Positions 5,120 to 5,899 of a stretch of DNA of 64,000 bases are shown piece by piece. Origin of the DNA: a virus. The notes under the pieces are model-generated. The model was not told the DNA's origin, did not search any database, and saw only the letters and a program-made list of their open reading frames with translations. The stretch is from the IMG/VR virus record IMGVR_UViG_3300045988_062793. One strand, 5' to 3'. Position numbers and translations under genes: made by a program. How positions within the stretch are numbered: the stretch's first letter is position 1; every line of letters starts with the position of its first letter.

Positions 5120-5159
5120 GGACCTATAGCTCAGCCAGGTCAGAGCAGCTAATTATGAG
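5120..5159 (+). other. 5' portion of a tRNA gene (acceptor strand ggaccta, TA, canonical D-arm gctc agccaggtca gagc, start of anticodon arm) with no local 3' partner
   Basis: Canonical tRNA 5' features read directly; no complementary anticodon-stem strand, T-arm or acceptor strand follows locally. The perfectly complementary acceptor strand taggtcc lies at 5892-5898 after an intervening HNH endonuclease gene. Confidence 0.45.
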
Positions 5160-5165
5160 TCAGAT

Positions 5166-5242
5166 AGGGACGTATCCCCTCAAGCTTATACCTTGTAGAA
5201 AGGGTAGTCGGTCGCACGTGGGTTCAAGCCCCACCGTCCCTA
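5166..5242 (+). tRNA. tRNA-like element with canonical acceptor and T-arm but an unresolved central fold (possibly degenerate or part of the insertion)
   Basis: Acceptor agggacg/cgtccct 7/7, T-arm gtggg ttcaagc cccac, total 77 nt; D-arm and anticodon arm could not be folded canonically by eye. Confidence 0.35.
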
Positions 5243-5315
5243 CAACTTCTGGATTGAATTTTTAGTTTTGCACCAAAACATTTGGTATTATGATTATTTT
5301 CATATATATTTGTAT

Positions 5316-5864
5316 ATGAATTACAATGATTATAATACACAGAAGTTAAGAGGTTTAAAGCGCAAATTAGAGCTAGTAAAATCTCGTGGTGGTAAATGTG
5401 AACTATGCGGCTATGATAGAAACATAGCTGTTCTAGAATTTCACCATATCAATCCAGATGAGAAAGAGTTTCAGTTAGATATGAGACATTTATCTAATAC
5501 AAGTCTAGAAAGGCTTAAAGAGGAAGCAGATAAATGTCAACTTCTATGCGCTAATTGTCATAGAGAAGTACATAACCCTCACTTGGGAATGGACGAAGTT
5601 GAAGATTTAGTTAATACTGAAGCTAAAGATAAGACGTCTTTTGAAAATATGACTGGGTCTGTATGCCCAGTATGCGGCAAAAGATTTCCTAAATCTAAGG
5701 GTAAGATATACTGTTCTAAGGAATGCAGAGATGCTGATAAACATTATCCTTCTCTAGAAGAAGTAAATGAGCAGTACGAAATACTTAAGAATTGGGAGAA
5801 AGTTGCTCAGCATTTTGGATTAACTCGCAGAGTTATTCAAGGAATAAGAAAGAAAGACTCATAA
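5316..5864 (+). CDS. HNH homing endonuclease (HNH motif plus C-terminal zinc finger and HTH)
   Basis: CELCGYD...HHINPDEKEFQLDMRHL...LLCANCHREVH is an HNH signature; C-terminus has CPVCGKRF...CSKEC; embedded in the tRNA cluster between tRNA fragments. The track ORF starts at a TTG at 5268; the first ATG is at 5316. Confidence 0.8.
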   Translation: MNYNDYNTQKLRGLKRKLELVKSRGGKCELCGYDRNIAVLEFHHINPDEKEFQLDMRHLSNTSLERLKEEADKCQLLCANCHREVHNPHLGMDEVEDLVNTEAKDKTSFENMTGSVCPVCGKRFPKSKGKIYCSKECRDADKHYPSLEEVNEQYEILKNWEKVAQHFGLTRRVIQGIRKKDS

Positions 5865-5899
5865 TCAGGAGGTCGGGGGTTCAAAGCCCTCTAGGTCCA
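5865..5899 (+). other. 3' portion of a tRNA gene (variable loop, T-arm ggggg ttcaaag ccctc, acceptor strand taggtcc) matching the 5' half at 5120
   Basis: T-arm plus a 7-nt acceptor strand perfectly complementary to ggaccta at 5120-5126; begins right after the HNH stop codon. Confidence 0.45.

Follow-up and report, generated by a model that had tools for sequence, protein, structure and literature searches.

A tRNA-Ile2(CAU) gene split by an HNH endonuclease cassette that carries a tRNA-Ile(UAU)-like gene with a permuted core

Introduction

Between positions 5120 and 5899 of the viral sequence IMGVR_UViG_3300045988_062793 (the whole 64,000-nt stretch of DNA that was analyzed is referred to here as the window), the beginning of a tRNA gene is separated from a matching end by several hundred nucleotides, in which lie a second, tRNA-like element and an open reading frame for an HNH endonuclease. 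A preliminary description of the locus had reported these four parts, all of which are present, and they raise the question of how a tRNA gene can be interrupted in this way and what becomes of its decoding function. To our knowledge, homing endonuclease genes (HEGs) are thought to persist inside genes only within self-splicing introns or inteins, and otherwise to lie between genes. Two possibilities had been offered for the present locus, namely a group I-like intron and a homing-endonuclease insertion that disrupted and partially duplicated a tRNA gene.

Results

A single tRNA(CAU) gene in two pieces

Comparison with intact alleles demonstrates that one tRNA(CAU) gene has been divided in two, the parts lying at window positions 5120-5150 and 5856-5899. 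The comparison with related phages that the preliminary description had proposed was informative: 37 related IMG/VR contigs carry the gene uninterrupted, as a 74-nt tRNA(CAU) plus discriminator A. Both halves match it, far above chance, and the sole difference lies at position 27, which is polymorphic. The parts of the locus are as follows.

5120..5150, + strand: tRNA nt 1-29 of the interrupted tRNA-Ile2(CAU) gene (5' piece); equals the opening 31 bases of the intact form except nt 27
5151..5855, + strand: inserted cassette as a whole, 705 nt; boundaries from the intact alleles
5151..5165, + strand: leader AATTATGAGTCAGAT; repeats the anticodon stem-loop in inverted orientation, as read off the sequence
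5166..5242, + strand: permuted-core tRNA-Ile(UAU)-like gene, 77 nt; 99.2 bits with covariance model R1, 30.4 bits with the Rfam tRNA model
5281..5312, + strand: promoter-like motif TTTG-N20-TATATTTG of Bacteroidetes type; 3 nt separate it from the HNH start codon
5316..5864, + strand: HNH homing endonuclease gene, 182 aa; phrog_2255, E = 7e-26
5856..5899, + strand: tRNA nt 30-73 of the interrupted tRNA-Ile2(CAU) gene (3' piece); matches the final 44 bases of the intact form exactly

The 5' piece contains the 5' strand of the acceptor, the D-arm and the first three nucleotides of the anticodon stem; the 3' piece contains the rest of the anticodon arm with the loop CTCATAA, the variable loop, the T-arm, the 3' strand of the acceptor and the discriminator A. 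The cassette is inserted between tRNA nt 29 and 30, in the anticodon stem, and when its boundaries are compared with the intact alleles there is no target-site duplication. With the exons joined in silico, ARAGORN calls a canonical tRNA(cat). The split arrangement recurs in contigs of several independent metagenomes and is therefore not an assembly artefact. A megablast search of GenBank phage sequences with the region matched only one 5.8-kb unannotated fragment.

These boundaries revise the earlier ones. The two halves recognized at that time are real, but the 5' piece ends at 5150, and 5151-5159, which had been assigned to it, are already part of the insert; the 3' piece begins at 5856 rather than 5865 and includes the whole anticodon loop; and the insert, put at roughly 740 nt, is exactly 705 nt long. 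The suggested use of ARAGORN with intron options produced no credible intron-split tRNA. It returned a spurious tRNA-Leu and a contrived tRNA-His(atg), the latter with an assumed intron of 685 nt; both are ruled out by the boundaries of the intact alleles.

The identity of the outer tRNA, which the preliminary description could not settle, can be assigned because the 3' piece holds the whole anticodon loop. Its type was determined from published position rules together with exclusion within the genome, instead of by global alignment; aligned globally to reference tRNAs of E. coli and B. subtilis, the outer tRNA was not discriminated. In tRNA-Ile2, A3 or G3 occurs with T70 or C70, never C3-G70, and C4-G69 and C5-G68 are present (Silva et al. 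2006, PMC1635315). The 5' piece has A3, C4 and C5 and the 3' piece T70, G69 and G68, giving the pairs A3-T70, C4-G69 and C5-G68, and the other genes targeted by such cassettes have G3-C70 or A3-T70. The tRNA cluster of locus L020 also contains two initiator-like CAU tRNAs, one of them with a C1xA72 mismatch, a CAU tRNA of the elongator-Met type and a tRNA-Ile(GAU). C3-G70 is found in the elongator-Met type and in one of the initiator-like tRNAs, and T3-G70 in the other. As judged from these positions, the split outer gene, with its CAU anticodon, belongs to tRNA-Ile2, the class that reads AUA. This codon makes up 26% of the Ile codons (19.5 per 1000).

The leader, the promoter-like motif and the HNH gene

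The 705-nt insert consists of the 15-nt leader, the 77-nt tRNA-like gene, the promoter-like motif and the HNH open reading frame, and its non-coding share amounts to 165 nt. In the leader, TTATGAG is the reverse complement of the anticodon loop CTCATAA, and bases 5152-5161 are complementary to 5856-5865 in the 3' piece. This inverted copy of 10-12 nt of the anticodon stem-loop, at the left junction, is the only duplicated material in the cassette. Three independent split alleles, L080, L287 and L297, likewise have the motif ATGAG or TTATGA in their leaders. In another allele, L023, both leader changes preserve pairing with the 3' exon through G.U pairs, which hints at a function of the leader at the RNA level. 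The conserved complement of the anticodon loop has no role in the homing model presented below.

The promoter-like motif, which we take to fit the Bacteroidetes-type consensus, has only three occurrences on the + strand across the 64 kb of the window, and is likewise present in the L063 and L064 cassettes. The HNH open reading frame that follows it is intact and conserved, and 852 homologues were found. Its last three codons, GAC TCA TAA, lie inside the 3' tRNA piece, with the stop codon in the old anticodon loop. The protein has an N-terminal HNH/Zn module, a second CxxC...CxxxC Zn ribbon and a C-terminal tail that resembles a helix-turn-helix. The Pfam HNH model (PF01844) scores 20.7 bits, just under its cut-off of 21.4, and is the recorded match for many of the homologues; HH...N...CxxCH...H is invariant in our HNH alignment (A1). 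The PHROG match and the invariant residues point to a beta-beta-alpha-metal nuclease domain in the protein, and a sequence search of the PDB with the family profile gave only a marginal match, to McrA.

A tRNA-like gene with a permuted core

The preliminary description had noted a 77-nt tRNA-like element with an unfoldable core. The element is present, at 5166-5242, but its core has a fold that is supported by covariation. The Rfam tRNA score of 30.4 bits is close to the cut-off of 29, and ARAGORN at default settings makes no call on the element. Read 5' to 3', it comprises a 7-bp acceptor stem, U8 A9 and a 3-bp D-type stem that encloses the anticodon arm, which has a 4-bp stem and the loop CUUAUAC. 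After the anticodon arm come a linker resembling a D-loop (A14, R15, G18 G19), Y48, the T-arm and the discriminator A. In other words, segment 10-21 is placed after the anticodon arm, and the order of the family is 8-9, 22-47, 10-21, 48. This is not the canonical cloverleaf, since the covariation favors an anticodon hairpin inside the 3-bp stem.

The family is widespread and contains more than 140 distinct sequences. In an alignment of 75 of these, 98.0% of the positions predicted to pair do so, double changes are seen in 18 of 19 pairs, and the covariation measure is 0.79, compared with 0.20 for shuffled alignments (0/500 as high). RNAalifold independently recovers the nested structure. The 7-bp acceptor and the 5-bp T-stem with its GTTCRA loop are present and covarying, and the 7-nt anticodon loop with U33 and purine 37, as well as the discriminator, are kept, in these 75 sequences and in 73 new ones. 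One pair covaries between A-U and G-C exactly at the positions of R15 and Y48, as a Levitt-type pair would (AU 52, GC 16; in the repeat on the 73 new sequences, AT 41, GC 21), and U8 A9, the T-A before R and GG are invariant; among the new sequences U8 A9 and A14 are invariant and GG is found in 72 of 73. We infer that these elements may be equivalent to the tertiary core of tRNA (U8, A14, R15-Y48, G18 G19), although a plain Watson-Crick closing pair accounts equally well for one covarying pair accompanied by invariant bases.

The anticodons are almost all UAU or GAU, those of isoleucine. Our first loop pattern had fixed the anticodon as K-A-T, which made the result "always Ile" circular, and it was replaced by an anticodon-free scan, in which all 42 distinct cores carry TAT or GAT; Ile anticodons are present in 70 of the 73 new sequences. 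Three other structural proposals for the element were discarded. A tRNA-Ile(tat) cloverleaf, forced with ARAGORN at low threshold, has a broken acceptor, and the fold supported by covariation was preferred; a central hairpin from the single-sequence minimum-energy structure (TACCTT/AGGGTA) was dropped because it is not conserved in relatives; and an apparent covariation of T/C in the linker with A/G in the T-loop among copies of the window type, taken at first for a base pair, is now regarded as linkage between near-identical haplotypes.

Members of the family occur on more than 120 viral contigs, compared with 7 MAG contigs in 185,579 cellular genomes, and about 89% of the occurrences are free-standing, with no HNH gene nearby. 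In 84 Streptomyces phage records an element about 80% identical over its full length is found, including GAU versions, and in 83 of these records it is unannotated. Searches of the open-access literature for phage tRNAs whose D-arm is absent or permuted found none, and this phage-associated family is apparently undescribed.

Cassettes carry tRNAs predicted to read AUA

In all cases the cargo of the cassettes is predicted to read AUA. It belongs to the permuted UAU family in cassettes of the window type, in L067 and in L080, is a canonical tRNA-Ile(UAU) in L063 and L064 and is a CAU tRNA of the tRNA-Ile2 type in L062. In L066 the element, again with UAU, lies upstream of an HNH-family gene, and in L067, which has the same upstream flank, the cargo follows that flank in place of the tRNA-Ile2 gene. 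Within loci of up to 15 kb that have an intact target, no member of the permuted family is found. From this pattern in the sequences we infer, as a reading rather than a proof, that the inner UAU element replaces the destroyed AUA decoder.

Evidence for homing

The intact allele L009 has flanks that are 99.6% and 99.9% identical to the window over 1 kb on either side. At the same precise site there are 37 empty alleles and at least 9 filled ones, and the junction is common to at least five different flank contexts and to paralogous exons (GGGCC types). The cassette is found at the identical site in paralogous tRNA-Ile2 genes in which the adjoining exon bases are swapped. In L059 and L061 the exon bases beside the junction have been converted to the donor type. 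The exon halves of L061, ACT(GA) and TGTCA, cannot pair as an anticodon stem, those of L059 are similar, and those of L053 are chimeric. A search for the intact counterpart of the L061 tRNA returned only its own contig, and the native anticodon stem of this gene is a deduced one. All 37 intact alleles have either A/G or G/A at positions 27 and 43, but 4 of 9 split alleles are mixed there (Fisher p = 8e-4); the mixed combinations may reflect recombination only, not relaxed selection. Presence or absence at one site among close relatives, the use of that site in paralogous tRNAs and the co-conversion of flanking exon bases together indicate homing.

The locus also decays. Decay products are represented by L010, L021/L026, L068 and L332, and variants that lack the 3' exon but retain the inner tRNA are found in two different metagenomes. 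The same architecture exists in L080, with an HNH protein only 62% identical, and in most split alleles the exon halves are perfect. Perfect halves and a recurrent architecture would be predicted for a functional split gene; repeated homing into fresh intact genes explains them as well.

Discussion

A probable homing cassette with a proposed spare decoder

As a whole, these results favor, with a probability of about 0.75, the conclusion that a selfish HNH homing cassette has inserted directly in the anticodon stem of the tRNA-Ile2(CAU) gene of a gut phage, with no intron involved, and carries a replacement decoder for AUA. According to this model the HNH enzyme would cut the intact tRNA-Ile2 genes of co-infecting relatives, and repair would copy the cassette in, with the exon halves serving as homology arms. 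The split allele would be immune to cutting, presumably because the target site is disrupted. The split tRNA would not be rejoined and would be dead. Ordinary tRNA-processing enzymes would cut out the cargo RNA, onto which isoleucine would be charged, and the cargo would read AUA without the host lysidine enzyme TilS, which is proposed to make the insertion tolerable. Of the two options in the preliminary description, the homing-endonuclease insertion was thus essentially right about the disruption of a tRNA gene but not about its partial duplication, since the embedded element is a different, UAU gene.

We consider it highly improbable that the insert is instead an intron of group I (or group II) that encodes the HNH protein and splices itself out to leave a mature tRNA(CAU). 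The 5' exon does end in U (U29), the initial 11 nt of the insert and the initial 10 nt of the 3' exon form a helix resembling P10, phage group I introns commonly carry HNH genes and most copies have intact exon halves. The covariance-model search that had been suggested was carried out with Rfam 15 (cmscan of 4700-6300), and neither a group I nor a group II family matches there at E ≤ 10, nor does any intron family reach its gathering score anywhere in the window. The insert terminates in A where a group I intron would require omega-G, and moving the boundary would delete a base of the tRNA; only 2 bp form between the leader and the 5' exon at the expected P1; the open reading frame fills the entire 3' end of the insert and therefore leaves no room for P7' or P9; and the whole non-coding part is a tRNA-family gene, usually autonomous, plus a promoter. 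The halves of L061 would be unable to form an anticodon stem after splicing. The intron reading is close to refuted. There is little more to be said for a functional split tRNA, in which host RNase P and 3'-processing enzymes would excise the inner tRNA, and the outer pieces, held together by the acceptor stem and the helix between leader and 3' exon, would be trimmed and joined by a phage RNA ligase and a 2H/CPD-like enzyme, analogous to archaeal splicing. In favor of this very unlikely scheme are the 10-bp helix, with its two G.U-preserving changes in L023, and the ATGAG conserved in the leaders of diverged split alleles; a gene for a CPD-like 2H phosphoesterase lies directly downstream, the window encodes an Rnl2-like RNA ligase (49 kb from the split locus), and the insertion is at 29/30, which we take to be a site used in archaeal split and intron-bearing tRNAs too. 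However, there is no bulge-helix-bulge motif, which has two 3-nt bulges and a 4-bp helix; the paired region is one continuous helix of 10 bp that contains one mismatch and no bulges, and the junctions are 11 positions apart. The neighboring open reading frames include no splicing endonuclease, the CPD-like gene is the only candidate in a search near the locus for a splicing endonuclease, kinase or ligase, and it equally adjoins intact alleles. The halves of L061 do not fit together and those of L053 are chimeric, variants without the 3' exon but with the inner tRNA persist in two metagenomes, and the C-to-T change in L023 is ambiguous, as it also repairs a local hairpin of the 5' fragment.

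A different doubt concerns only the cargo. The homing cassette may be correctly identified while the inner element is a tRNA-like module without a part in translation, such as a signal at which RNase P/Z processing would release the HNH mRNA, a decoy for tRNA-targeting defense nucleases of the host, or a primer-like or tag-like RNA. This would fit a non-canonical core that fails ARAGORN and barely reaches the Rfam cut-off, the presence in Streptomyces phages of GAU versions that duplicate a tRNA abundant in their hosts and the statement, in a passage of PMC11551756, that all known bacterial tRNAs are cloverleaves. We regard it as unlikely, though less so than the intron or the rejoined tRNA. 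The 7-nt loop keeps U33 and A37, nearly all the anticodons are those of Ile, the discriminator is always A and bases matching all the tertiary-core positions of tRNA are conserved. Most copies have no HNH gene nearby and are therefore not merely processing signals for an HNH mRNA, and the cassettes with other cargo hold ordinary AUA-reading tRNAs in the same position.

The homing cassette with a replacement decoder also leads to a broader proposal, which is tentative and for which we put the odds a little short of even. Phages of the gut, sea, freshwater and soil would encode a working, non-cloverleaf Ile tRNA that is used on bacterial ribosomes, and an HNH cassette of crAss-like phages would use its UAU version as a spare part, destroying a TilS-dependent tRNA-Ile2 gene while supplying a TilS-independent AUA decoder, so that a homing element would be rendered harmless without an intron or intein. 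Direct insertion into a gene, combined with a carried replacement of that gene, would represent a third route for HEGs. The standard tRNA finders and phage annotators miss the permuted family, and phage tRNA counts and codon-adaptation analyses consequently lack a gene. If it is active in translation, the family would overturn the view that tRNAs on bacterial ribosomes are always cloverleaves, would offer a natural test of the importance of tRNA connectivity for synthetases, EF-Tu, RNase P and the ribosome, and would be a ready-made orthogonal scaffold for synthetic biology. It would also bear on the conflict between phages and hosts over tRNA, through independence of TilS and possibly resistance to tRNA-cleaving defenses.

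Comparison with known systems

HNH enzymes are encoded in the tRNA region of phage T5. SegB of T4 is the product of a free-standing homing endonuclease gene in a phage tRNA cluster (PMC2330249). The cassette resembles these HEGs in that an endonuclease gene with its own promoter and no intron lies among phage tRNA genes, and SegB-type enzymes, like that of the proposed model, cut the tRNA region of relatives that lack the gene and spread with co-conversion of flanking markers. The known genes sit between intact tRNA genes, whereas the present cassette splits one, takes the stop codon of its open reading frame from the anticodon loop of the target and carries a cargo tRNA with the same decoding task.

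Group I introns with homing endonucleases are known from bacterial tRNA genes, as in cyanobacterial tRNA-fMet (I-Ssp6803I), tRNA-Leu(UAA) and the tRNA-Ile of Azoarcus. These too are mobile, endonuclease-bearing insertions in the anticodon arm, with empty and filled alleles among relatives. Unlike them, the cassette has no ribozyme core, omega-G or P1, interrupts the stem, at 29/30, and not the loop, and has as its non-coding part an independent tRNA-family gene. In archaea, tRNA genes may be split, as are the halves of Nanoarchaeum equitans, or interrupted by bulge-helix-bulge introns at non-canonical sites, for example 29/30. Archaeal split and intron-containing tRNA genes have been reviewed (PMC4033280). 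The window gene shares with the archaeal split tRNAs the break at 29/30 and a helix in which sequence adjoining the 5' piece pairs with the first bases of the 3' piece, but it has no bulge-helix-bulge and no splicing endonuclease, its context is that of a Bacteroidota-type host, and in some copies of the locus the exon halves are incompatible.

Decoding of AUA by tRNA-Ile(UAU) independently of TilS has been described in Mycoplasma mobile (PMC3575796) and in a suppressor of a tilS deletion in B. subtilis (PMC3919564). In these organisms, as proposed for the cassette, a UAU tRNA takes AUA over from the lysidine-dependent tRNA-Ile2(CAU). The proposed swap differs from both in that it comes on a mobile element that destroys the CAU gene and in that the core of the UAU tRNA is rearranged.

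Departures from the cloverleaf include mitochondrial tRNAs without a D-arm, tRNA-Sec and tRNA-Pyl, and the circularly permuted tRNA genes of Cyanidioschyzon. Non-canonical 8/4 and 9/3 tRNAs have also been reported (PMC7609411, PMC5389517). Like the non-canonical tRNAs, the inner element departs from the cloverleaf while keeping the domain of acceptor and T-arm and the anticodon loop. Unlike the D-arm-less tRNAs it seems to have lost nothing, retaining a 3-bp D-stem, a D-loop-like segment with GG and a putative pair of the R15-Y48 type. Finally, the permuted Cyanidioschyzon genes yield canonical tRNAs after processing, whereas in the inner element it is the connectivity itself that differs.

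A tRNA-Ile2 gene is interrupted by a 705-nt insertion

ARAGORN found no tRNA in the split region of the window, and the sole Rfam match there was a marginal tRNA at 5166-5242 (30.4 bits, cut-off 29). Each tRNA half was used as an exact-match query against IMG/VR, and these scans returned dozens of gut-phage contigs of 95-190 kb. In 37 contigs the two halves were contiguous and formed an ordinary 74-nt tRNA plus discriminator A: GGACCTA TA GCTC AGCCAGGTCA GAGC A ACTGA CTCATAA TCAGG AGGTC GGGGG TTCAAAG CCCTC TAGGTCC A. These contigs confirm that the window carries a tRNA gene interrupted by an insertion, as the preliminary description had proposed. 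The boundaries proposed there must be corrected: comparison with the intact alleles shows that 5151-5855, a stretch of 705 nt, is the insert. It separates tRNA nt 29 from nt 30, interrupting the anticodon stem in its 5' strand, and has no target duplication. One intact allele (L009) is 99.6% identical to the window upstream and 99.9% downstream, over 1 kb on each side. The tRNA had been left without an identity; the intact alleles, together with the tRNA(cat) that ARAGORN calls when the window exons are joined, establish its anticodon as CAU. The principal features are as follows.

5120-5150 (+): 5' piece of the split tRNA, GGACCTATAGCTCAGCCAGGTCAGAGCAGCT, with its partner strand absent locally
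to 5898 (+): 3' side of the split tRNA, T-arm and complementary acceptor strand TAGGTCC, followed by discriminator A at 5899
5316-5864 (+): HNH ORF, its final codons GAC TCA TAA supplied by the tRNA anticodon stem-loop
5915-6331 (+): 2H/cyclic-phosphodiesterase-like ORF (Pfam tRNA_lig_CPD PF08302, 33 bits, cut-off 23)
54878-56245 (+): Rnl2-like RNA ligase (phrog_968, E = 2e-39; Pfam RNA_ligase 22 bits, below cut-off)

According to Silva et al. 2006 (PMC1635315), a tRNA-Ile(CAU) is marked by A3 or G3 with T70 or C70, and Met and fMet tRNAs usually have C3-G70. At 3/70 the split gene shows A3-T70, and its C4-G69 and C5-G68 also fit the discriminators of that study; G3-C70 or A3-T70 is found in the remaining genes that were invaded. 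A single cluster of 26 tRNAs in L020, a contig with an intact allele, contains two initiator-like CAU tRNAs (one with a C1xA72 mismatch), an elongator-Met type (C3-G70), a tRNA-Ile(GAU) and the target gene, and no UAU tRNA. Because the 3/70 marks fit and this cluster holds the other CAU types but no UAU tRNA, the split gene can be identified as tRNA-Ile2, the reader of AUA. The window phage has 36% GC, and AUA makes up 26% of its Ile codons (19.5 per 1000).

Several neighboring elements were noted. A hairpin, TAGTC-N12-GACTA, is conserved just upstream of the split tRNA (5095-5115, +); a compensatory change to TAGCC...GGCTA in L025, L031, L035, L038 and others suggests a structured leader or processing element before the tRNA-Ile2 gene. 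In L012 (~2040-2110), L030, L032, L034, L039 and L042 a further degenerate tRNA-like sequence, GAGCCTACCTAATTGG...GGGTTCAAGTCCCAATAGGTTCA, comes right after the tRNA-Ile2 gene and is followed by ~150 nt that are GC-richer and possibly structured. The window itself has two initiator-like CAU tRNAs with an unpaired first base C (11053-11132 and 12259-12332, +; C1xA72 and C1xT72), the former 80 nt long with only 39 bits in Rfam and an aberrant insertion-bearing stretch before the T-arm (GAAATCGTCATAAACGGTTCGAATCC). A sequence resembling tRNA-Ala(UGC), whose acceptor pairs poorly (11978-12050, +), is detected by Rfam alone (39.5 bits), and a tRNA-Cys(GCA) of 86 nt (10166-10251, +) has an unusually long variable region.

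The insert behaves as a homing-endonuclease cassette

Two origins had been offered for the insert, a group I-like intron and a disruptive homing-endonuclease insertion. The covariance-model search suggested for the former was run with Rfam over 4700-6300, and this sensitive scan (E <= 10) gave no match to group I or group II families. The insert terminates in ...AAGAAA and so has no omega-G (shifting the boundary to the next G would cost one tRNA nucleotide). Its first 11 nt (AATTATGAGTC) pair in a P10-like manner with the first 10 nt of the 3' exon; the bases that follow form just 2 bp with the 5' exon, and P1 is therefore absent. The junctions show no bulge-helix-bulge. Because the HNH ORF occupies the 3' end of the insert, there is no space for the 3' half of a ribozyme, and the 165 non-coding bases are fully accounted for by a 15-nt leader, a 77-nt gene that occurs on its own in other phages, and a promoter-like motif. 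The reading of the insert as an intron is thus very probably wrong.

The insertion into the tRNA gene is real, and the homing-endonuclease account is probably right, given a site that is invariant across at least five flanks, donor-type exon bases and products of decay. The HNH protein (PHROG HNH match, E = 7e-26; 852 homologues) is intact, with invariant metal and catalytic residues in the alignment, a second zinc ribbon and a helix-turn-helix-like tail. A TTTG-N20-TATATTTG motif, which we take to be the Bacteroidetes promoter consensus, ends 3 nt before its start codon; the motif occurs just 3 times on the + strand of the window and recurs in the L063/L064 cassettes. Distant members of this HNH family are found in phage tRNA clusters generally, and directly after several of them comes a tRNA 3' fragment.

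Identical junctions follow no fewer than five distinct upstream flanks. Paralogs of the tRNA gene whose acceptors are of the GGGCC type (L024/L061, L029/L053, L059) have all been invaded at the same position, and in these foreign genes the junction-adjacent exon bases are of the donor type. In L061 the 5' piece ends ...A-CT and the 3' piece reads GA-CTCATAA-TGTCA, so that no anticodon stem is possible (ACTGA would face TGTCA), and L059 has its own GTTGG at the left and the donor TCAGG at the right. Among 37 intact alleles (L002-L051), nt 27/43 are A/G in 20 and G/A in 17 and never mixed, compared with mixed pairs in 4 of 9 split alleles from distinct contigs, including G/G in the window (Fisher p = 8e-4). 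This pattern is compatible with recombination at a break; relaxed selection may contribute, and linkage by itself could account for it. In the intact tRNA-Ile2, nt 27 and 43 (window 5148 and 5869) form a purine-purine 'pair' that tops the anticodon stem, switches on both sides together and leaves a 4-bp Watson-Crick stem.

Decay products were also found, as expected from the homing-endonuclease life cycle. In L010 the HNH is truncated and forms a fusion with a gene downstream; L068 has a deletion within the 3' exon, L053 an expanded G-run, and L332 the inner tRNA's T-loop fused to the outer 3' exon. L021 and L026 have kept the inner tRNA and, via an 11-nt repeat (CCCTACAACTT), lost the HNH gene and the 3' exon together with the two genes that follow and tRNA-Leu. 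L080, a diverged split allele, has an in-frame TGA at ~codon 37 of the HNH gene (R K * E, about 1540-1550); either the gene has become a pseudogene or this phage recodes stop codons.

The leader contains TTATGAG, the reverse complement of the anticodon loop, and the 5' fragment therefore terminates in a hairpin that resembles an anticodon arm with its loop inverted (plus G30A); alternatively the leader can pair with the 3' exon. ATGAG or TTATGA recurs in the independently diverged split alleles L080, L287 and L297, and two leader substitutions in L023 leave both pairings possible. The leader may be a scar of the founding event, for example of template switching in a stem-loop palindrome, or may have a role at the RNA level.

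The cassette carries a proposed AUA-reading replacement

In all cassette types examined, a gene predicted to read AUA lies just upstream of the HNH gene. The window type, L067 and L080 carry the 77-nt UAU element as this cargo, L063/L064 (HNH 56-57% identical) have a canonical tRNA-Ile(UAU), and L062 has a tRNA-Ile2-type CAU tRNA; in L066 the UAU element is upstream of an HNH-family gene. In L067 the element and HNH gene stand, with no exon remnants, behind the flank that precedes the intact tRNA-Ile2 in L020/L051. With a covariance model of the element, every filled locus gives a single copy and no locus with an intact target gives any. From the cargo, the L067 slot and this presence and absence, we infer that the cargo functionally replaces the split tRNA-Ile2.

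It is improbable, at odds that we put at well below one in ten, that the split gene instead functions through enzymatic re-joining of its halves. The persistence of perfect exon halves in L080, where the HNH is merely 62% identical, is what a functional split gene would show, and it also fits a cassette that has homed repeatedly into fresh genes. The 5915-6331 ORF, which directly follows the split tRNA, has two HxT motifs (DHCTL, PHITI) and encodes a 2H phosphoesterase, a candidate tRNA-repair enzyme; PF08302 is the cyclic phosphodiesterase domain of fungal tRNA ligase. Together with the RNA ligase it suggests phage tRNA repair, and the two may form a tRNA-repair set. The CPD-like gene is equally found beside intact alleles and hence lies outside the cassette. 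The outer gene is probably not spliced, and the inner RNA would be expressed, processed and charged.

The NrdD proteins of bajarodcaudo virus 1, cr111_1, cr85_1 and IAS virus share 70-72% identity with that of the window; the phage is a crAss-like gut phage, and these relationships fit a Bacteroidota host. Other proteins encoded in the window are an SPFH/Band-7 protein (657 aa, 1659-3632), an OmpA-like outer-membrane beta-barrel protein (23852-24868) and a nicotinamide phosphoribosyltransferase (26988-28538).

The embedded element appears to have a permuted tRNA core

The embedded element is a more surprising outcome than the insertion itself. The core of this element, at 5166-5242, had been described as unfoldable; it is predicted to fold as a rearranged tRNA. 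In the common fold the acceptor stem has 7 bp and leads through U8 A9 U into a 3-bp stem, which encloses 'CY', a 4-bp stem with a 7-nt loop, and 'UWGAAA'. A linker of ~13 nt then connects to the T-arm, after which come the acceptor 3' strand, discriminator A and C. Unguided RNAalifold returned exactly this fold. Over 75 distinct sequences, 98.0% of the cells are paired (37-48% in slid controls), both-sided changes occur in 18 of 19 pairs, and the covariation score is 0.79 versus 0.20 in shuffles, none of 500 of which reached 0.79.

A mutual-information scan revealed that linker base 3 covaries with the base just 5' of the T-stem (A-U 52, G-C 16), and this was replicated in 73 further distinct sequences (A-T 41, G-C 21), in which neither U8 A9 nor the 'U-A' ahead of the covarying purine ever varies and 72 have GG. 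This is the pattern expected of the Levitt pair R15-Y48. The linker may thus be read as a D-loop (A14 R15 Y Y G18 G19 U ...) leading directly to Y48, the GGG(U) before it as D-stem strand 10-13, and the (U)CCC after U8 A9 as strand 22-25. On this reading every part of a 77-nt tRNA would be present, with segment 10-21 relocated behind the anticodon arm. We speculate that nt 10-47 were once duplicated in tandem and that the outer halves were then lost, which would yield exactly the observed order.

The anticodon loop retains U33 and A37. Among 42 distinct cores found with the anticodon unconstrained, 27 have UAU and 15 GAU, with no others; the covariance-model hits comprise UAU 50, GAU 20, CAU 2 and UCU 1. 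More divergent members have 5-bp anticodon stems. One permuted-core tRNA (L334 6056-6131, -) has the loop CTTCTAA and anticodon UCU (Arg/AGA), and two members of the family alignment carry CAU; the architecture is not strictly limited to UAU/GAU.

BLAST against GenBank phages unexpectedly yielded full-length copies of ~80% identity in 84 Streptomyces phage records, unannotated in 83 and labeled 'tRNA-Leu' in one (EGole). There a permuted-core tRNA(GAU) always has a nucleotidyltransferase gene, which may encode a CCA-adding enzyme, directly upstream and an FtsK-like gene downstream (loci: L154 (EGole) 965-1577, L155, L158, L159). Free-standing copies occur in crAss-like cr130_1 and bajarodcaudo virus 1. 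A degenerate pattern matched >120 viral and >120 metagenome contigs (gut, marine, freshwater, soil) and only 7 times in 185,579 cellular genomes, all in short MAG contigs. Since ~89% of copies have no HNH nearby, this is a resident phage gene family that was acquired by the HNH lineage. Two permuted-core genes share a contig in L083, L173, L204, L229, L237, L312, L315 and L355; in L083 (1041-1118 and 2283-2360) one is GAU and one UAU, with an HNH gene between, and in L173/L315 they are in tandem, ~10 nt apart.

We found no description of this family in the searchable literature, and it is apparently an undescribed, phage-associated tRNA architecture. In one published abstract, all known bacterial tRNAs are said to be cloverleaves (PMC11551756).
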